Assembly: GCA_037071015.1 (NCBI GenBank) | Contig: JBAMOY010000001.1 | Location: 831,478-863,477 of the forward strand | Length of the DNA stretch: 32,000 nucleotides | From: Bacilli bacterium | GTDB lineage: Bacteria; Bacillota_I; Bacilli_A; RF39; UBA660 | Direction of reading: 5' to 3' | In this document: positions 3,878 to 15,440 of the stretch, piece after piece | Layout of the letters: each line of letters starts with the position of its first letter | How positions within the stretch are numbered: the first letter of the stretch is position 1 | Notes under the pieces: generated by a model | What the model was told of the DNA's origin: nothing | The model's input: the letters and a program-made list of their open reading frames with translations, nothing else | Database searches by the model: none | Program-made: the position numbers and the translations under genes

Positions 3878-5212
3878 TTATTCCTCTTTAAATCCCACTA
3901 TCATCCCACTTAACATATAAAATAATGGCGCCACATCAACAACACTAATGTTAAATAGAGCTTGTACACTATAACCAATAATTGGAATAGATAAAGTCAA
4001 CATTTCAACACTTTTAATTTTAAGTCCTTTTTGTATTACCATAAACAACCATATCATATATGGTATAAATCCAATAATACCATTAGTAACTAAAATCTGT
4101 AAATATACATTGTGAGCTTTATCTACCTTTTGAGTATGATAATATTTATTATAAGCTAAACCTAGGTTATCTAAACCAACCCCAACCAAATAATTATCCT
4201 TAATTATCGGAATACTATTTTTCCATATTGTTATACGATTGCTAGATAATTGATCTAAAGTAATATCTTCTTTATGAATCAAATTAGTATTTTTCTTCAC
4301 AAAGTTACATTCCAAATCTAAAATATCACATCCATATATTAATACTCGATCAATATCACCTTTAATTGTATAATTATCCATATTTTCATAATGATATATA
4401 TCATTAAACAAATAGTCAGTACCATAAACCCCAAACAAAAAAGTGATAATAAGGCTTATACATAAAACATTTAATCTACAACCCACCTTTATTTTCCTAA
4501 CCAAAATAATCAATAATAATACAAACAGTCCCACAAAGTAACCGATAAGTGGCCCCGTCGACTGCGCTAATATAAGACTCATTATAAAGATTATAGAACA
4601 TATCAAATAATAAACACGATGTCTACTTGAAAATAAATATAGTCCAATACTTAATAACCCTAATAAAACCATATAAGAACCAAAAAAATTAGGATTACCA
4701 TTTAAACCACTTGCCATCCAAATCCATTTAAATTTCATAACAAATGGAACTTTAAATATTACTTGAAAAACAGCATATAAACTTTGTAAAATACCCATTA
4801 AAAGCCACACATTTAATATTTTAAATCTTTTATCGCAATCAATTAATCTACTATTTAAAAAGATTAAGTAATAAGATAGTAAAACAATAAAACCTTCATA
4901 ACGATGAGTATAGCCAAATATAGCAGTATCATAATCAATAGCCAAAACTGAACTAATTACACCCGCCAATATCAAAATATACATTATATAATCAAAATAA
5001 TTAGGTTTGATTATTTTTTTATATAAACAGTAAATATATATAAACCCATGTAAAGGTAATATAAGCCAATACATTCTTAATAGATTAAAAGAAAAATAGA
5101 CATTATCTAAATTAAAATATAATGAAGTATATTTAATTAACATACATATAGGAAATATTAATATACATATAAGTAGTGAATAATAGTTAAATTGATATAT
5201 TTTATTATCCAT
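3878..5212 (-). CDS. O-antigen ligase / Wzy_C family polytopic membrane protein (possible O-oligosaccharyltransferase)
   Basis: About 10-12 hydrophobic spans, with a Wzy_C-type motif KAHNVYLQILVTNGIIGF near the C-terminus. It lies directly downstream of a pilin gene. Confidence 0.7.
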   Translation of the reverse strand: MDNKIYQFNYYSLLICILIFPICMLIKYTSLYFNLDNVYFSFNLLRMYWLILPLHGFIYIYCLYKKIIKPNYFDYIMYILILAGVISSVLAIDYDTAIFGYTHRYEGFIVLLSYYLIFLNSRLIDCDKRFKILNVWLLMGILQSLYAVFQVIFKVPFVMKFKWIWMASGLNGNPNFFGSYMVLLGLLSIGLYLFSSRHRVYYLICSIIFIMSLILAQSTGPLIGYFVGLFVLLLIILVRKIKVGCRLNVLCISLIITFLFGVYGTDYLFNDIYHYENMDNYTIKGDIDRVLIYGCDILDLECNFVKKNTNLIHKEDITLDQLSSNRITIWKNSIPIIKDNYLVGVGLDNLGLAYNKYYHTQKVDKAHNVYLQILVTNGIIGFIPYMIWLFMVIQKGLKIKSVEMLTLSIPIIGYSVQALFNISVVDVAPLFYMLSGMIVGFKEE

Positions 5213-5264
5213 GATATCACCCTAAATATTATAACGTATTCTATTTAAAATAAAAATAAGCCTT

Positions 5265-5284
5265 TAAGCTTATTTTTATAGTTA
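5265..5284 (-). terminator. Weak AT-rich hairpin plus U-tract between the pilin gene and the Wzy_C gene
   Basis: Minus strand AAUAAGC-UUAAAG-GCUUAUU followed by UUUUAUUUUA. The stem is AT-rich, so termination is probably partial. Confidence 0.3.
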
Positions 5285-5297
5285 TTGTAAATTATTA

Positions 5298-5684
5298 CTA
5301 TTTATCACAGTTAACTGTATCTCCAGATTGAGTACAAGTATAATCCCCAACCTTGAAACCAGCACTTAATACAGCAGTAGCCTCACCATTTGAAGATGCA
5401 TTTTCAAATGTAAGAGTTCCTGTCATATTATCTTTGTTTTTTAAATCTAAAGCAGTTACATTAACAGTGTTTTCTGTTGGTGCTGAACCTGTTTCTAAAA
5501 TTGTATTTGCATAATATAATTCTGCAGCTTTAATTGCAGCATATGCATCACTTTCAGCAGCTCCTTTTCTAGATTGTTCAATATACTTTAATACCATTGG
5601 TGTAGCGATTAAAGCAATAATAGCTAAAATAACGATAACAGCCAATAATTCAATTAAAGTAAAACCTTTTTGATTTCTTTTCAT
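5298..5684 (-). CDS. Type IV pilin / pseudopilin with prepilin N-terminal cleavage-methylation domain
   Basis: N-terminus MKRNQKG|FTLIELLAVIVILAIIALIA is a class III signal with Glu at +5. There is a C-terminal Cys pair (C..C) and a strong GAGGAGGAAGG RBS. Confidence 0.85.
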   Translation of the reverse strand: MKRNQKGFTLIELLAVIVILAIIALIATPMVLKYIEQSRKGAAESDAYAAIKAAELYYANTILETGSAPTENTVNVTALDLKNKDNMTGTLTFENASSNGEATAVLSAGFKVGDYTCTQSGDTVNCDK

Positions 5685-5858: not shown

Positions 5859-7379
5859 TTACTTTTTAAAAGAAGTATTAACTGTTTGATAGTATAATTT
5901 TTCAAGTTGTTCATCTGATATTTGAATAACCTTACCACCGTTAGGATTTATTTCTTTTCCACCAAAAACAACCCATATTGCATCTAAACGTTTAGAAGGC
6001 ATATCCGCATAACCATCAGTAAAAATTATTTTATTTTCAACCCGTCTTGTAAAAGCATTAACTGCTGTTTCAAAATCAGTTCCACCACCACCAACAAATG
6101 GCATATTATCAATATCATTTACATTTTTGATTTCATTAAAACCATAAAATTTTGTATCAAAACAACCAGCTTTTACCTTAGAATTTTGCAAAATATTTTT
6201 ACATTCTCTTAAAAAATTTCGTAATAATGATTCATCGATTGAACCACTAGTATCTAATAAAATTTCCGTTTCGGGTTTTGGAAGTTCCTCTAAATAAGGA
6301 GTAATCACCCCATCTTCAATTGAGGCATTTCGATAAGACCAATCAACATCATATTTAATAGCTTCTTTTAATAAGCGACGCCAATCAATTAAAGGGTCAG
6401 CAGTACCAATATCATTCATATTTCTAATTTCAGAATTGGTATCTTTACCTGCGCCAATTGATTGTTTAGCTAACGATGAACGTAACTCATCTAACTGTTT
6501 TTTTCTGTCAATTTTATTTTGTTCAAAAATTCGTTTTTCACCAATCTGCGACAATCTATTTATCTGTTGACGAACTTTTTCGATATCTTTCTTTTCTTTT
6601 TCATCTAAAGAATCTGGTTTTGAATGACTCTTTTGTTCAGATTCTCTATGATCATTCGAGCTGTCTCTTTGAGAATCTTCATTTTGTTTTTTAGTTTCCT
6701 CTTGTTTTCTTTTTGCCACTGCTTTCTGCCACATATCATGTGTATCGTGACCCACATCCTTTGTTTGTTCTGAAGAACTTTTTTCTTCTGAATTACTTCT
6801 CTGTTGTTCACTTTCAGAACCACTGTTTTGATTATGATTACCAGATGAGCTCTGATCTTTTTGATCATTTTCCTGACCTTGTGAATTAGAATCTCTATTT
6901 TGGACATTAGATGAATCACTCTGAGATTCCGTATTTTGATTACCATTTTCTGATGATTTTTGGGCATTTTGTTTTTGCTCCAACAACTTTTGATAAAAGG
7001 CTTCGGCATCATAATTAAATGCTTCTGGCATATTAACACCATCTTTGACTATTTGTAATCCATCATGCTCTAAATAAGCATTGATAACGGCGTCAGTGGC
7101 AGTATTCCAAAGATCTGGATCTTTACCTTCGCTTCTGAAAATATGATCAAAAGCCACATGACAAACTTCATGAGCAAAAATAAACACTTGTTCATTTTTT
7201 GTTAAACTATTTATAAAATCCGGATGATAATAAATCGTATTGCCATCTGTTCCCGCAGTCGGTTGTCCATTACTATAACAATCTCTAGATTCAACATAAT
7301 TTAAATTAGCTATAATACTCCCAAAAAAAGGATATTTAACTAACATTCTTTTTTTTATAGAATCAATATTAAAACTCAT
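5859..7379 (-). CDS. Putative zinc metallopeptidase (HExxH) fused to a VWA-like domain (DUF2201-type architecture) through a long low-complexity linker
   Basis: HEVCH at 7158..7172 in an N-terminal peptidase-like domain. The C-terminal ILLDTSGSI...GGGGTDF resembles a VWA MIDAS-type region. I prefer the start at ATG 7379 (MSFNIDS) behind an AGGGGTG RBS. This architecture is typically partnered with MoxR-type ATPases. Confidence 0.75.
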   Translation of the reverse strand: MSFNIDSIKKRMLVKYPFFGSIIANLNYVESRDCYSNGQPTAGTDGNTIYYHPDFINSLTKNEQVFIFAHEVCHVAFDHIFRSEGKDPDLWNTATDAVINAYLEHDGLQIVKDGVNMPEAFNYDAEAFYQKLLEQKQNAQKSSENGNQNTESQSDSSNVQNRDSNSQGQENDQKDQSSSGNHNQNSGSESEQQRSNSEEKSSSEQTKDVGHDTHDMWQKAVAKRKQEETKKQNEDSQRDSSNDHRESEQKSHSKPDSLDEKEKKDIEKVRQQINRLSQIGEKRIFEQNKIDRKKQLDELRSSLAKQSIGAGKDTNSEIRNMNDIGTADPLIDWRRLLKEAIKYDVDWSYRNASIEDGVITPYLEELPKPETEILLDTSGSIDESLLRNFLRECKNILQNSKVKAGCFDTKFYGFNEIKNVNDIDNMPFVGGGGTDFETAVNAFTRRVENKIIFTDGYADMPSKRLDAIWVVFGGKEINPNGGKVIQISDEQLEKLYYQTVNTSFKK

Positions 7380-7390
7380 ATTTAGCACCC

Positions 7391-7792
7391 CTAAATATGA
7401 ATTAACAACGAATAAACATCTTCACTAATTGGATGATTATTTAAATTATTTGCTGTTACGATAATTAAACATTGCTCTGGCAATTCAAATGTACTTATCT
7501 TACGATATTTTAATATCTCAATAAATTTATTTTGTTCTGCCATCGGTATCATATTAATATTTTTAATCACAATAATAGGCCGCTCTTTTTTTACTCTATC
7601 AAGTAAATCTTGATACCAATCAGGTGCAACAAATGAAGTTCCCTCATAATGCCCATTCAAAAGCGATATGTCACAATCAGCATTAATAATAATATCATTA
7701 ACAAATACATCATCTGAAACATCTTCTAAAAGAAGTGGCGACATATTAGCTTTGATATAGGTTTCTAACAAATTTATTCTATCTTGTTTCAT
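7391..7792 (-). CDS. Degenerate AAA-like protein, a paralog of the Walker B to sensor-1 segment of the upstream ATPase with no Walker A
   Basis: PIIVIKNINMIPMAEQNKFIEILKYRKISTFELPEQCLIIVTANNLN aligns by eye with IHIVFFDEITNALPSIQGMAFNIVLDGEVNGIWKLPENARIVAAGNDLN of the 540-aa ORF. The Walker B DE is replaced by KN. An ATGA start/stop overlap with the upstream ORF indicates translational coupling. Confidence 0.5.
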   Translation of the reverse strand: MKQDRINLLETYIKANMSPLLLEDVSDDVFVNDIIINADCDISLLNGHYEGTSFVAPDWYQDLLDRVKKERPIIVIKNINMIPMAEQNKFIEILKYRKISTFELPEQCLIIVTANNLNNHPISEDVYSLLIHI

Positions 7793-9411
7793 CGTCTTAT
7801 CCCTCCTTCTGATAAAGATGCTGTTCGTAATTCTGCTATATACTCTAATCGTGATTCATCACCATGAATCCAGAGGTTATCAAACGTGGCACATATTTCC
7901 GCACCTAATCTTTTAACAAAATTTCTAACAGTTTCTAAATTTTCTTCATCAACAGAAGAAAGACCCACTGCTGTTGCAAATTTTTCAGCAACATTCATTT
8001 CCAAGTCATTATCATTGTAATTACCATTTATCACATCATCAACACTGATAACTTGTTGACGACAAAAAGCCGTAAAATCACTAGTTAAGTCTTCACCAAC
8101 CAAAGCTCTAAGCATTTCTGGTTGTTTGGTCTTATACAATATTTTAGATGCCATTTCCCATTTACGAGGATCAGCATTAGGTTTTTCACCATTATAAGCA
8201 GTTCTTAAGACATCCTCGCCCTTATAAGACTTATAAGCTATATATGCATAAATAGCCGGATGAATTTTAGCTTGGATATCTTCTTCTTCATAATCTAATC
8301 TTTCATATGCTTCTTTAGGCATTGACGCCCATTTTAACCACGAATCAACAGTAGTATTAATATAGACATGTGCAAAACGATTAAATAATGGTTCAGCCAT
8401 AGTATTAGCTGCCAAACTATCATTTAAATCATTACCAGCAGCTACAATACGAGCATTTTCTGGTAGTTTCCATATTCCGTTTACTTCACCATCCAAGACA
8501 ATATTAAAAGCCATACCTTGTATGGAAGGAAGCGCATTAGTAATTTCATCAAAGAAAACAATGTGAATTTTATCTGGTTCTGCCTCACATTTTTGCTTTA
8601 ATTTTTTTAACCAAGTTGGAGGAACATCTATCATTTCACCAGTTTCTGAATTGTATACACTTTTACCATTCAAACTTTCTGGTGTAGCATTCCTTAAATA
8701 AATTATTTCACAATCCGGATCCAACTGTTTTACCCGGGCACTTTTACCTTCACTAGATCTACCATGTAAAAATACAGCTACATTCCCCTTAATAGCCCCT
8801 TTAATTATATCTTCTTCACTAACCCGATCAAAATTAAAACCATATGGATTTCTTTTTCTTGTTACTGCATGTTTATCTATTATATTATTTTGCGAATCTA
8901 AATTTTGAACCAAATCTCTAATTTGCAGTAGATCATGAGATAAATGTTGATCCAAAAATTTTTTTATATCCGTATTAAGCCAATTAGCCGTTTTATAATC
9001 CCTTGTTCTATTGAACTGAACCCCAGAAAAAATTAATTTTTCTGAAACGGCTATTCCTTCTTGTTCATCAACTAACCATTTTACTGGTTCAACTGCAACC
9101 CAAACAAAATCACCGTTACGATAATTTTTCCCATTAGATAACGTAAACTCTCTAGAACCATAATCAGAATTAGCTTTAACCCTAATATATCGTTTACCAT
9201 TATATTCATATTCATCATGAACCAACGCTTGAAACGGTTGATCATAAGCATCATATGGTCGCGAATCCGTTGTATATGTATTCCCAGTCCTAATGAGTCC
9301 TCCAAAATTAAAAGCCCGTTCCAATTGAACTTGCAAATCAACACTAGCAACAGTCTGCGGATAATACCCATATTCAATTTCTAGAATTCCATCATTTGCT
9401 CTTCTACTCAC
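7789..9411 (-). CDS. MoxR-like (AAA_5-type) AAA+ ATPase with an N-terminal DUF6273-like beta-rich domain; this is the downstream part of the interrupted DGR target
   Basis: Walker A GRSSEGKS (8740..8763), Walker B IVFFDE (8545..8562), sensor-1 RIVAAGND. The N-terminal region has EPVKWLVDEQEG...NWLNTDIKKFL. The track start is a GTG with no Shine-Dalgarno, and the frame stays open upstream to 9483, so it is probably not an independent start. Confidence 0.8.
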   Translation of the reverse strand: MSRRANDGILEIEYGYYPQTVASVDLQVQLERAFNFGGLIRTGNTYTTDSRPYDAYDQPFQALVHDEYEYNGKRYIRVKANSDYGSREFTLSNGKNYRNGDFVWVAVEPVKWLVDEQEGIAVSEKLIFSGVQFNRTRDYKTANWLNTDIKKFLDQHLSHDLLQIRDLVQNLDSQNNIIDKHAVTRKRNPYGFNFDRVSEEDIIKGAIKGNVAVFLHGRSSEGKSARVKQLDPDCEIIYLRNATPESLNGKSVYNSETGEMIDVPPTWLKKLKQKCEAEPDKIHIVFFDEITNALPSIQGMAFNIVLDGEVNGIWKLPENARIVAAGNDLNDSLAANTMAEPLFNRFAHVYINTTVDSWLKWASMPKEAYERLDYEEEDIQAKIHPAIYAYIAYKSYKGEDVLRTAYNGEKPNADPRKWEMASKILYKTKQPEMLRALVGEDLTSDFTAFCRQQVISVDDVINGNYNDNDLEMNVAEKFATAVGLSSVDEENLETVRNFVKRLGAEICATFDNLWIHGDESRLEYIAELRTASLSEGGIRR

Positions 9412-9425
9412 TACGTTCGTAGAGA
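9408..9425 (-). promoter_or_regulatory. Candidate hairpin/cruciform downstream of the VR (possible DGR target-recognition element)
   Basis: Minus strand UCUCUAC-GAAC-GUAGUGA is a 7-bp stem with one mismatch and a 4-nt loop, about 28 nt 3' of the VR end. The VR 3' end (GGTTGTGGTCGTCCAG) is locally GC-rich. Confidence 0.35.
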
Positions 9426-9452
9426 TACTAAAGATGGATGAGTACGGTAAAG

Positions 9453-9524
9453 CTGGACGACCACAACCATTGCGTTTTGGACATTATTGTTGTTTCTATT
9501 TCCATTATTCTAGACGACGCGGGC
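9453..9524 (-). repeat. DGR variable repeat (VR) copy inside the target gene, currently identical to the TR at all adenines
   Basis: The 72 nt match 11050..11122 (73 nt) exactly except for one base in a homopolymer. The target frame is AAY-rich: AAT AAT GGA AAT AGA AAC AAC AAT AAT. Confidence 0.85.
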
Positions 9525-9731
9525 GTCATTATCGTTATCATCAGTTTTAGTCCAATAATAACCGGTACGGTCTTTTAAAGAACTACTTCCGTCTAGATAA
9601 TAATCTCCAACATATCCTCCTAACAATATTGAAAAATCAGTTAATGCTGCTTTAGTACCACGCTTTTTTATAATACTTAAAGCATTATTGCCAAATAACT
9701 GTTCTTCTGTTAAAAAAGTAAAGTTATTCAT
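9510..9731 (-). CDS. N-terminal fragment of the DGR target (ligand-binding module up to the VR), ended by the TR-derived TAG
   Basis: Good AAGGTGA RBS. FLTEEQL...KAALTDFSILLGG...GYYWTKT...ARVV resembles the WWLRS...V...G...VRPA-type lectin-like modules. The ORF ends at TAG 9510..9512, inside the repeat shared with the TR. Confidence 0.75.
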   Translation of the reverse strand: MNNFTFLTEEQLFGNNALSIIKKRGTKAALTDFSILLGGYVGDYYLDGSSSLKDRTGYYWTKTDDNDNDARVV

Positions 9732-9811: not shown

Positions 9812-10828
9812 TTACGGTTTAACCTTTTCCTTTAAAATTTGGTTCTCATCGGTATTTTTAATTCGATTATAAAAAGCGTTTTTACGTTCATAAACATAAA
9901 TATCATCAACTAACCCTTTAGTTTTTAAATGATTTAAATTTTTAATATGTTTTTTCATTCTAATTTTTGATGATGAACGTAATTTAGTAATTATTTTACC
10001 TTCAGTAGTTAAAATGTGACGATAACCTAAAAAATCTATTCCATTTTTAACCATCCCAATTTGTGTTTTTTGATTTAATAATAGATGAAGATCATCATGA
10101 CAAATACGTCTAATTTCATACAAACATTTTTTTAAATACTCTTTATCATGATGAATCAAAATCATATCATCCATATATCGAATATAACTTTTAACTTTTA
10201 AAACCTCTTTAATATAACGATCAACACTATTCAAATATAAAAGCGCAAACCATTGACTGGATTGATTACCAAGTGGAAGTCCTTTATCAACTTTATTCGG
10301 TTGTTCTAAAATAACCTTTTTCATAAACCACATTTCATCATTTGAAAAATTAAGCTGTTTTAAAAGATTGATTAAAACTTGATGATTAATACTATCAAAA
10401 TATTTAGTCACATCGCATTTTAAAAAATAAATATTATTATTGCCACAAGAACGATATTCACGTTGTAAAAACATTCGAAGACGTTTAATAGCGAAGCTTG
10501 AACCCTTATTTTTACGACAAGCAGCATTATCATATATTAACTTATTTTCAACTCTAGGACGTAAAATATGATTACAAAAACATTTAATTACAACGCGATC
10601 TTTAAATGGTAATGCTTCAATTACTCTCTTTTTAGGTTCAAATATTAAAAATTGACGATAAGACCCTAAACAATACTTTTTTGAACATAAAGATTTTCTT
10701 AATTTGGAAATATTTAATGATAAATTAGTTTCAAATCTTATAACTTCCCCTTTATGTTGTTTAGCTTTGCGACAATCTCTATAAGCATCATACAGGTTCT
10801 CAAAAGTAAAAATATCCTCTAATAACAT
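9812..10828 (-). CDS. DGR-type reverse transcriptase
   Basis: RT motifs CDVTKYFDSINH, LGNQSSQ (10253..10273; this is the [I/L]GxxxSQ signature seen in DGR RTs, where group II and retron RTs have QGxxxSP), YMDD (10166..10177) and IDFLGYR. I prefer ATG 10828 (MLLEDIF) behind a GAGGGTGAG RBS over the TTG at 10846. Confidence 0.9.
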   Translation of the reverse strand: MLLEDIFTFENLYDAYRDCRKAKQHKGEVIRFETNLSLNISKLRKSLCSKKYCLGSYRQFLIFEPKKRVIEALPFKDRVVIKCFCNHILRPRVENKLIYDNAACRKNKGSSFAIKRLRMFLQREYRSCGNNNIYFLKCDVTKYFDSINHQVLINLLKQLNFSNDEMWFMKKVILEQPNKVDKGLPLGNQSSQWFALLYLNSVDRYIKEVLKVKSYIRYMDDMILIHHDKEYLKKCLYEIRRICHDDLHLLLNQKTQIGMVKNGIDFLGYRHILTTEGKIITKLRSSSKIRMKKHIKNLNHLKTKGLVDDIYVYERKNAFYNRIKNTDENQILKEKVKP

Positions 10829-10846
10829 AAACTCACCCTCTAACAA

Positions 10847-11122
10847 AAAACACCCCTAATAACGCCCAAAAAATAGTTTCCTATTCGTTGCTTGTGTAGG
10901 TGTTTATGTTCTTCCACCGCACTAATTAACTCTTAGCGGTTAGAAAAGAGAAAAGTTCCTTCACTCTATAGTACTGATATATTCATCTTAGAATATATTT
11001 CTCTGACCTGTTTTCTAGATTCACATAGCAAATCTCTTCAAAAGTGAATCTGGACGACCACAACCATTGCGTTTTTGGACATTATTGTTGTTTCTATTTC
11101 CATTATTCTAGACGACGCGGGC
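10847..11122 (-). ncRNA. DGR template RNA: TR plus the spacer leading into the RT gene
   Basis: A non-coding 276-nt stretch between avd and the RT holds the TR, followed by a stem-loop-rich spacer (for example CCGCUAA...UUAGUGCGG). In characterised DGRs the TR-spacer RNA is both template and primer for the RT. Confidence 0.65.
11050..11122 (-). repeat. DGR template repeat (TR)
   Basis: The 73-nt copy of the VR lies in non-coding DNA between avd and the RT. It has 26 adenines on the coding strand, 8 AAY codons in the target frame, and one TAG. Confidence 0.85.
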
Positions 11123-11191
11123 CCAAAAGGCCAAGACTTGAAGACACGCCACAGAAAATTTAACTTTTCCCTTAATTAAAAGTTTTTCAAC

Positions 11192-11785
11192 TTAAAATCC
11201 TTTTTTAGTATTTTTCCATCTTTCATCATCACTTTTTTTCCATGCTACAATCAAATTGATAGCTTCTGCTAATTGCAAAGAAATTTGTTTATATTGCTTC
11301 TTTAATATGCAACCACTATTTTCGGCCAACATAGCGACATAACCAAGAAGCTTCAATTTCACAATTGCTTCTTTTTGTAAATTTTCCCGTTTCGTTTTAT
11401 TTTCTAAACAATCCATTCGAATATAATTTGCTTTAAGAAGATCTTCTAAAGCATCTAGACAAAAGTTTTGCATTCTATTGACAAAGACTCCACGAAATCT
11501 TTTTGGTGATTTTTCTGTTACAGCAATGACATAAGCTCCCAATTTCTTTACAACAGTAATAACTACTAAATCATTTGCATTAAAAGGAATTCTAAATATT
11601 TTATCTAATTCTACATTATCCTTTTCTACTTCTTGCTTAATCTTGTCTTTTTTAAATACCTCATGTTTAGTAATAGCATCCGCTTCCTTAATGGCTACTA
11701 TATCAGAAACAGTATTAATTTGTTCAGCTTTACATACAATTTTTTTAGGTATTTTCAAATTATTATCCCTACTCACTTGTAACAT
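11192..11785 (-). CDS. avd: Avd-like accessory variability determinant (four-helix-bundle / 23S rRNA IVS-protein family) with an N-terminal extension of about 60 aa
   Basis: The C-terminal ~130 aa has KSPKRFRGVFVNRMQNFCLDALEDLLKAN ... ISLQLAEAINLIVAWKKS, which fits the typical Avd pattern, and it lies immediately upstream of the TR. The start codon is uncertain. Confidence 0.7.
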   Translation of the reverse strand: MLQVSRDNNLKIPKKIVCKAEQINTVSDIVAIKEADAITKHEVFKKDKIKQEVEKDNVELDKIFRIPFNANDLVVITVVKKLGAYVIAVTEKSPKRFRGVFVNRMQNFCLDALEDLLKANYIRMDCLENKTKRENLQKEAIVKLKLLGYVAMLAENSGCILKKQYKQISLQLAEAINLIVAWKKSDDERWKNTKKGF

Positions 11786-15181: not shown

Positions 15182-15440
15182 CCTTTAAATAAAAAAAACG
15201 TCCTATATAAGGACGTGATTAACGTGGTACCACCTTAGTTTATGCATAAAAATGCACCTCAAATATTTAACGCATACATACGTAATATCTTACTAATTTC
15301 GGATATTAAACTCCCTTGCTACCTTCAATAATTCATATTATTAGTTCGCATCAACCACTAACTTTCTTAAAATATAAAATTATTTACTCCTCAAGTTCTA
15401 AGTTTTTAAATATTATAACCCATTTTATTTCTTTTGACAA
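15182..15440 (-). promoter_or_regulatory. T-box riboswitch leader with a sigma-A-type promoter, controlling the HD-domain gene and valS
   Basis: Promoter TTGTCA (15435..15440), 17-nt spacer, TATAAT (15412..15417). Conserved T-box sequence AAGGUGGUACCACG (15223..15236) overlaps the terminator CACGUCC-UUAUAUA-GGACGU plus U8 (15190..15217). Confidence 0.85.

Follow-up and report, generated by a model that had tools for sequence, protein, structure and literature searches.

Here we describe a diversity-generating retroelement (DGR) in a 32,000-nucleotide (nt) stretch of the genome of a Bacilli bacterium (GTDB lineage Bacteria; Bacillota_I; Bacilli_A; RF39; UBA660; GenBank assembly GCA_037071015.1, contig JBAMOY010000001.1, forward-strand positions 831,478 to 863,477), hereafter referred to as the window. 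The analysis points, with a probability that we put at about 0.85, to an active chromosomal DGR whose template repeat (TR) carries a stop codon at a mutable codon, and which therefore both diversifies its target gene and toggles that gene between an open and a closed state. The anatomy of a DGR is present, the TR is invariant, the variation in the variable repeat (VR) of the target is adenine-specific, and open and closed alleles are found in near-identical strains. While the DGR itself is of a known kind, the presence of a stop at a mutable position of the TR is new, since natural open and closed alleles exist, the arrangement recurs across species and the VR lies at the 5′ end of a gene for an AAA+ ATPase.

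The template and variable repeats of the window

The VR of the window is a 72-nt core (GCCCGC...CCAG) that differs from the 73-nt core of the TR in a single respect, a run of four adenines in place of five (T4 at 9475..9478 and T5 at 11072..11076 on the plus strand; coordinates of all features are collected in Table 1). A 72-nt repeat of such exactness is far beyond chance. There are 26 adenines in the TR core and 25 in the VR, with zero A-to-N differences between them. In the target frame both repeats read GTC GTC TAG AAT AAT, and the TAG in the VR terminates an open reading frame (ORF) of 73 amino acids (aa; 9731..9510) that is preceded by a Shine-Dalgarno sequence (AAAGGTGA). The downstream ORF of 540 aa (9411..7789) starts at GTG without a Shine-Dalgarno sequence, and the insertion of one A in the VR creates a frame of 647 codons in which the TAG is the sole stop. 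An earlier note on this stretch, made from its letters only, had described the matching adenines, the TR-templated TAG that closes the ORF after 73 aa, the fusion of the 73-aa and 540-aa frames by one added base and the GTG start without a Shine-Dalgarno sequence, all of which we found to be correct. It had also named the A4/A5 difference as the only one between TR and VR; this holds for the window, but in SRR26750166, an independently assembled sample of the same strain, the run is A5 and the A4 was not reproduced.

The homology between the repeats stops at CCAG, which is followed by ATTCAC in the TR and by CTTTAC in the VR. This is a 3′ difference of the kind that separates the initiation of mutagenic homing (IMH) sequence from IMH* (TR ...CCAGATTCAC, VR ...CCAGCTTTAC), and the same A/C difference was present in 18/18 TR/VR pairs of the family, all of which have CCAGATT in the TR and CCAGCTT in the VR. 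The reverse transcriptase (RT) encoded between the two repeats combines the RVT_1 domain with PLGNQSSQ and YMDD, the sequences that correspond to the [LIV]GxxxSQ and YxDD motifs of the DGR clade. The TR does not display the nonsense avoidance that is typical of TRs, as it contains TAG (core codon 5) and also AGA and AAA.

Open and closed alleles in sister strains

We compared 40 loci of the species cluster at the DNA level, 23 of which contain the TR. The 73-nt TR, including its TAG and A5, was invariant in 23/23 loci, even in strains in which the TR flanks were 3% different, whereas 14 distinct VR alleles were present. In the nine full-length alleles, 92 of the 234 adenine sites (39%) were substituted relative to the TR compared to 1 of 423 other sites, which is the signature of a DGR. 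The adenine-specific difference between TR and VR was thus provided by these nine alleles and the invariant TR, the window itself being uninformative in this respect.

Three of the 14 alleles were open over 647 aa, with TTG (L003), TCG (L005, 23 contigs) or TGG (L015) at codon 74. Seven others kept the TAG in a frame that was otherwise open, and the remaining four combined the TAG with a frameshifting indel: the window (-1), L001 (-2), L110 (+1) and L111 (+1). The -2 allele of L001 was present in two independent samples, including an independent SPAdes assembly. At the protein level, the cluster of targets at 90% identity had 12 members; codon 74 encodes S, W or L in the three members of 647 aa, and closed calls of 540-583 aa were also present. 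The presence of 3 open and 11 closed alleles among strains that are 94-100% identical fits a phase-variable locus. It had been predicted from the window that adenine mutagenesis of the TAG would give TTG, TCG or TGG and open the gene, and all three codons were found in sister strains; comparing the VRs of such strains, proposed at the same time as a check, yielded adenine-specific differences, both allele classes and an invariant TR.

These data can be accommodated in a simple model, in which each retrohoming event would restore the TAG at codon 74, except when misincorporation by the RT opposite its adenine gives TTG, TCG or TGG. Further closed outcomes would result from indels in the A-run and from the conversion of AGA to TGA or AAA to TAA, and about 1/4 of events would be expected to give an open gene under the observed substitution spectrum. 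The predicted target, a gene of 647 codons with the VR near its 5′ end, encodes a MoxR-like AAA+ ATPase that has a DUF6273-like domain at its N-terminus, and the window would hold a closed allele with the TAG and a 1-nt deficit. We infer that retrohoming is still under way, that the indels arise by RT slippage, and that closure of the target also lowers the expression of the two downstream genes.

Some features of individual alleles are worth recording. The VR of the TTG allele carries the only non-adenine change seen in the 5′ part of the core, a G to T. The TR adenines at core positions 28, 37 and 72 (window 11095, 11086 and 11051), which belong to AGA (its first A), to one AAT (its first A) and to the terminal CAG, were never substituted in the nine full-length alleles (P ~0.01 each at the 39% rate), which could reflect a sequence-context bias of the RT or selection. 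Six scaffolds of the European Nucleotide Archive SPEN21 set (L002, L017, L018, L024, L025 and L026) have valS, the RT gene or the 133-aa gene split where these are intact elsewhere; these assemblies are probably indel-rich, and frameshifts seen only there are therefore to be distrusted.

Two of the three open alleles lie beside a damaged or rearranged avd gene. The strain with the open TTG allele (L003/L004; GCA_965618935.1; SRR33956143) has an in-frame 162-nt deletion in avd, which encodes 143 aa there compared to 197 aa and lacks much of the bAvd-like core (L003 1109-1540; window equivalent 11192-11785), and this strain may have lost DGR activity, which would leave its open allele frozen. 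In the TCG lineage, six contigs (L005, L006, L115, L117, L120 and L121) share a start, at which homology begins at window position 11196 within the last avd codons and is preceded by 25 unrelated bases (TATTGTATCTACTCTAAGGGGTTCA) that are absent from the window; the 3′ end of avd thus seems to have undergone an insertion or rearrangement.

The target is a single gene under constraint

More than 100 database homologues of ~645 aa (62-71% identity) span 100% of the repaired frame and contain both fragments in one protein, and the residue that they align to the TAG varies (I, D, L, D, S, N). The earlier note had named a homologous target made as two proteins as a finding that would refute its reading; such a pair of separately translated proteins is ruled out by these single homologues and by the 540-aa ORF having no ribosome-binding site. 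An exact look-up of the window's 540-aa product returned no record.

A decaying pseudogene with a dying DGR, in which the TAG and the frameshift would be ordinary mutations that have inactivated the gene, had also been raised as an alternative. The TAG is indeed kept in 11/14 alleles and frameshifts are found in 4, and such cases are excluded from curated surveys on the grounds of inactivity (Wu et al. 2018, PMC5758913). However, the TAG resides in the TR and is not a mutation of the VR, the VR differences are confined to adenines to the extent given above, and 3 alleles are open. We also calculated the ratio of non-synonymous to synonymous polymorphism (pN/pS) between the window and one sister strain that is 98.5% identical to it. 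The 3′ part of the target had a pN/pS of 0.25 (15.5 synonymous and 14.5 non-synonymous changes; binomial P = 9e-5 vs neutrality), while that of the RT was 0.05, that of Avd 0 and those of the two downstream genes ~0.1. Furthermore, TR stops occur in 10/18 species with targets that are otherwise intact. The pseudogene explanation is thus largely refuted by the constraint on target, RT and Avd and by the invariant TR, and we consider it very improbable.

We regard it as more improbable still that the TAG is decoded or read through in this organism, such that the TAG alleles are effectively open. The TAG adenine shows no excess of substitution, as though the TAG were not selected against. Nevertheless, recoding was ruled out since TAG ends 6 of the 24 other ORFs of the window; in addition, no conserved gene contains an in-frame TAG, and related species have TAA or TGA at like positions of their TRs while all three stops end long ORFs in these species. 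A scan for a suppressor tRNA found no tRNA genes in the window. Stop usage in the window is TAA 17, TAG 7 and TGA 1, the lone TGA being the target's own stop, within an ATGA overlap. Programmed frameshifting was also rejected, as the indels vary by strain (-1, -2, +1, +1) and sit at different places.

Stop codons in the TRs of related species

A scan of species-representative genomes identified 78 loci with the target, often in tandem arrays of paralogues, and 18 distinct TR/VR pairs with adenine-specific mismatches. In-frame TAA, TAG or TGA codons were present at adenine-bearing codons in 10 of these 18 TRs, at core codon 5, 6, 12 or 14. Four of the genomes were caught in the closed state, the VR codon templated by the TR stop being the sole lesion of the target (L032, L037, L044 and L048), whereas in the other six genomes with a stop-carrying TR the VR codon is now Leu, Trp, Arg, Ser, Pro or similar. 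Genetic code 4 (TGA = Trp) does not explain the TGA codons in TRs, because every Trp codon of the targets (10-14 in each) is TGG and all three stops, including TGA, terminate long ORFs. As the TGA of TRs sits where other TRs or VRs have TGG, the data suggest that Trp, Cys, Leu and Ser become accessible through stops in the TR. Tandem arrays of 2-4 target paralogues were observed in other species (L083, L084, L086, L093, L100 and L103), and in L083/L084 three target copies have an identical 181-nt VR region, with one TR serving all of them.

Origin of the template-identical VR

A VR identical to its template was absent from the other 13 alleles and from the 18 other species. The probability that 0 of 25 adenines are substituted under normal mutagenesis is 4e-6 and rises to 4e-4 if the lowest rate of any single allele is assumed, in agreement with the previous assertion that such a VR is very unlikely to arise by normal mutagenic homing. 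Independent assemblies were available as Logan k=31 contigs (SRR26750159 and SRR26750166), which match the window over 1571-4685 nt save for one 1-nt gap in L123, indicating that they are from the same strain. All of these contigs break inside the VR, at adenine sites. L119 extends from the 3′ end of the TR as far as position 16 of the VR, ending immediately before adenine site 17, and L122 begins immediately after adenine site 50. L123 (SRR26750166) begins with TCCAAAAACGCAATGGTTGTGGTCGTCCAG followed by CTTTACC, which is the unmutated 3′ core with A5 on the VR-specific flank, and over 3516 aligned nt it is identical to the window apart from the 1-nt gap. The unmutated VR ends are real in the window's strain, and the VR appears to be heterogeneous within samples, the contig breaks at adenine sites being no more than suggestive of reversible switching in a single lineage.

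One explanation is that the window holds a real allele that was made without adenine mutagenesis, through TR-to-VR gene conversion, template switching during replication (the direct repeats are 1.6 kb apart) or a rare faithful cDNA, with a 1-nt slip of the A-run in the same or a later event; we place this a little below even odds. It is favored by the unmutated 5′ and 3′ ends of the VR on VR-specific flanks in the independent assemblies, and by the A-run indels in L001 (-2), L110 (+1) and L111 (+1), from which it follows that length changes belong to the spectrum of the element. A high-fidelity variant of the RT is not the cause, because the RT protein of the window is identical to that of strains with 9-16 substitutions. 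On the other hand, a second template-identical VR was not encountered in the sister alleles or other species, the constant ends of the repeats (15 and 22 nt) are short for conversion of the RecA type, and direct evidence favors none of the routes.

Alternatively, the template-identical VR, the A4 or both could be the product of assembling a VR that is heterogeneous within the sample, a possibility that we take seriously but hold to be doubtful. Since each adenine is kept in ~61% of cases, a consensus or highest-coverage path, together with the k-mers of the invariant TR, would return the TR sequence, and the single-base deficit would then be an error or a minority allele. This would account for the breakage of all same-strain contigs within the VR, for the junction in L123 of an A5 core with the VR-specific flank as its only mismatch to the window, and for the low probability of an unsubstituted VR. 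Against it, the A4 is absent from the TR, so that this part of the path must stem from VR reads or from error, and the other 24 ORFs are intact in a window of 29% GC despite many homopolymers. Moreover, L119 and L123 show the first 16 nt and the last 31 nt of the VR unmutated on VR-specific flanks, and the 9 unmutated adenines there (sites 14, 16, 47-51, 55 and 56) are improbable for a typical allele. The unmutated VR ends are compatible with the non-mutagenic origins suggested in the earlier note, but within-sample heterogeneity and the path of the assembly, to which the independent assemblies point, had not been considered; a naive ground state, which had also been suggested, is unlikely, given that the sister strains around this one, at 97.6-99.6% identity, are diversified.

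Is opening of the target selected?

Several observations weigh against the reading of this locus as an active DGR that toggles its target. With no adenine substitutions in its VR, the window alone does not demonstrate DGR activity, and all alleles come from metagenome assemblies, as contigs rather than reads. The match of the bAvd-like gene to Pfam bAvd (E 2.6e-4, 21.9 bits) lies below the gathering score (cutoff 40), although its position and conservation agree with a role as Avd. A DNA fold of 9470..9375 revealed no hairpin or cruciform after the VR (-6.7 kcal/mol, z = 0.09 vs shuffles); such a hairpin downstream of the VR is a requirement in BPP-1 that is not universal among DGRs. The C-type lectin fold expected of a diversified domain could not be confirmed with an AlphaFold 2 (AF2) model or a PDB search. 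Finally, the TAG adenine was substituted in 3/13 alleles, no more than average (mean 39%), and 11/14 alleles are closed, with no sign among hosts of selection for the open state.

We built a neutral model from the observed substitution spectrum, in which the probability of obtaining no stop is 0.34 per event, the stops being due to the TAG kept (0.61), AGA to TGA (0.075) and AAA to a stop (0.073). With 10/14 alleles free of indels, the probability of an open gene is ~0.24, compared to the observed 3/14, and the allele spectrum across hosts looks like raw mutational output. The proposal that the DGR acts as an ON switch besides diversifying the target thus stands with regard to its ON/OFF effect, for which the mechanism is evident, whereas selection for a switch finds no support in the substitution frequency of the TAG adenine; an adaptive 'switch' is an interpretation.

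It is close to an even question, tending slightly to the negative, whether the mechanism operates as described with TR stops that are merely tolerated. They could be by-products of TR drift, or a cost that is paid for access to Trp, Leu, Ser, Cys, Tyr and Phe, residues for which AAY codons are a poor source or none. The agreement of the open fraction with the neutral expectation is consistent with this, as are the location of the TR TGA where other TRs and many VRs have TGG (Trp) and the variable positions of the stops between species, which suggest repeated origin. The frequency of TR stops among species and the invariance of the TR across strains whose flanks have diverged by 3% argue against mere tolerance, since they indicate that the TAG has not been purged though cost-free TR mutations that remove it are readily accessible; this last argument is weak (P ~0.09). 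More speculatively, TR stops could be a selected design of this clade of gut-Bacilli DGRs, whereby retrohoming would re-roll a binding site and at the same time decide whether an intracellular MoxR-VWA sensor is expressed, with a closed default, opening by mutagenesis, and favourable open alleles that could then be frozen by the loss of avd.

Organization of the locus and domains of the target

The minus strand is the coding strand for every gene of the window, and the DGR module has the order bAvd-like gene, TR, spacer, RT, target, 133-aa gene and DUF2201 gene on this strand (Table 1). The TR-RT spacer is presumed to be part of the DGR RNA. An Rfam scan of the window found a T-box leader only and no DGR RNA family. 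If the avd stop is read through in frame (11123-11194), translation runs into the TR and ends at its TAG (...AFWARVV*), which is probably a coincidence.

Table 1. Features of the DGR module in the window.
Feature	Position	Strand	Description
bAvd-like accessory gene, 197 aa	11192..11785	-	directly upstream of the TR; Pfam bAvd, aa 74-185
TR, 73-nt core	11050..11122	-	reads ARVV*NNGNRNNNNVQKRNGCGRP in the target frame; TAG 11108..11110; A5 11072..11076
TR-RT spacer, 221 nt	10829..11049	-	starts with ATTCAC, compared to CTTTAC in the VR; IMH*-like side of the boundary
DGR reverse transcriptase, 338 aa from ATG	9812..10828	-	Pfam RVT_1 E 6.6e-18; motifs LGNQSSQ, YMDD
Target gene 5′ fragment, 73 aa	9510..9731	-	start of DUF6273 / Fib_succ_major-like domain; Shine-Dalgarno upstream
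VR, 72 nt	9453..9524	-	TR minus one A in the window; A-mutagenised in sister alleles
TAG copied from the TR, target codon 74	9510..9512	-	TTG, TCG or TGG in open alleles
A4 run (A5 in the TR), -1 frameshift	9475..9478	-	A5 in same-strain contig L123
Target gene 3′ fragment, 540 aa	7789..9411	-	beta-rich middle domain, MoxR-like AAA+ ATPase, helical C-terminal domain
133-aa gene	7391..7792	-	overlaps target stop (ATGA); adjoins target in all sister loci; no family match
DUF2201 protein	5859..7388	-	metallopeptidase-like N domain, VWA-like C domain; Pfam DUF2201_N E 1.2e-33, DUF2201 E 8.6e-12

With regard to the domains of the target, Pfam searches with 15 N-terminal domains found DUF6273 in 7 (best E 2.6e-6) and weak matches to Fib_succ_major in 7. 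An AF2 model of the N-terminal domain alone had a predicted local distance difference test (pLDDT) score of 56, which is unusable for a fold search, and a profile search of the PDB with this domain gave chance matches only. The full-length model (pLDDT 66.8) gave AAA+ matches only in Foldseek; in this model the ATPase core resembles the MoxR-class NorQ (9qhg_E and 9qh9_C; Foldseek probability 1.00, with a low template-modelling score). The Walker A motif is GRSSEGKS, and weak matches to AAA_5 were found in paralogues.

The DUF2201 protein is likely the partner of the AAA+ target. It contains a long low-complexity linker rich in S/Q/N/E/D/K, the length of the protein being strain-dependent (506, 509 and 552 aa; L001, L003 and L015 compared). 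Beside the DGR lies an operon of an HD-domain gene and valS, downstream of a T-box leader (15206-15409; Rfam RF00230, 128.8 bits), and directly downstream of the module all strains have a type IV pilin-like gene (N_methyl motif) and a Wzy_C O-antigen-ligase-like gene (3878-5684). We therefore conclude from these neighbours, valS, the pilin-like and Wzy_C genes and the lepA gene further downstream, that the element is chromosomal.

Comparison with known systems

The choice of codons in TRs has been described as avoiding nonsense (Macadangdang et al. 2024; Doré et al. 2024; Paul et al. 2015; PMC12875486; Nimkulrat et al. 2016; Ye 2014), and we found no natural TR-encoded stop or DGR-driven ON/OFF in the DGR literature that we searched, an absence that is not proof. 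The statement of the earlier note that it knew of no described DGR whose TR has a stop at a variable position is thus in line with what has been published. In the survey of Wu et al. 2018 (PMC5758913), more than half of the candidate DGRs were dropped for premature stops or truncations, frameshifting indels were noted, and an N-terminal VR was present in only 3/372 DGRs, while stops are not mentioned by Roux et al. 2021. Nonsense avoidance has been treated as a design rule of TRs, and the present family breaks this rule in 10/18 species, while the differences between the open and closed alleles of natural populations are exactly those expected from adenine mutagenesis. Catalogues of DGRs therefore probably undercount active elements, and a DGR is able to serve as a device for phase variation besides diversification. 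Where T and G are fixed at a position, moreover, adenine mutagenesis can reach Trp solely through a stop in the TR. The read-out of the gene is simple, a 647-aa product or none.

The element resembles canonical DGRs (BPP-1 Mtd, Treponema TvpA and the Bacteroides pilus DGRs) in its RT with LGxxxSQ and YMDD, its candidate Avd-like gene, its TR/VR pair with adenine-specific variation of the VR, its AAY-rich TR codons and its fixed 3′ boundary. It differs from them in the in-frame TR stop at a mutable codon, in a VR near the N-terminus of a 647-aa protein, in the frameshifting indels of 4/14 alleles, and in that no hairpin was detected after the VR.

The target and its neighbours are also reminiscent of the MoxR-vWA conflict systems, in which the vWA component carries a fused FGS domain that is diversified by a DGR (Kaur, Burroughs, Iyer, Aravind 2020, PMC7159879). 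Both combine a diversified domain, lectin-like there and putatively so here, a MoxR-class AAA+ ATPase and a VWA partner, all apparently cytoplasmic, and the VWA-like partner (DUF2201_N and DUF2201) is encoded here two genes downstream of the ATPase. However, the FGS domain of those systems is at the C-terminus of the vWA component and they occur mostly in cyanobacteria and other multicellular bacteria, whereas in the present element it is the ATPase that bears a DUF6273-like domain, at its N-terminus, a DUF2201 protein is the partner and the hosts are gut Bacilli with small genomes. An FGS domain on the vWA component and a third VMAP/iSTAND component were not found, the third gene (133 aa) having no family match.

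Apart from the present family, TR stops are known solely in engineered reporters (PMC12875486), such as the kanR repair constructs with stops in the TR or the target (Guo et al. 2011, PMC3240598; PMC12875486). As in these reporters, the adenines of the stop codon are mutagenised in retrohoming, with the gene ON or OFF as the outcome; unlike these laboratory constructs, the TR stop described here is natural and conserved.

In contingency loci, phase variation is brought about by slipped-strand mispairing at homopolymers or short repeats. Like them, the DGR has a hypermutable tract at which a frame is opened and closed in a stochastic, heritable and potentially reversible manner, giving rise to mixed open and closed populations. 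In contrast to these loci, the toggle is written here by reverse transcription from an invariant template, and each event resets the whole 73-nt tract and simultaneously diversifies the protein.

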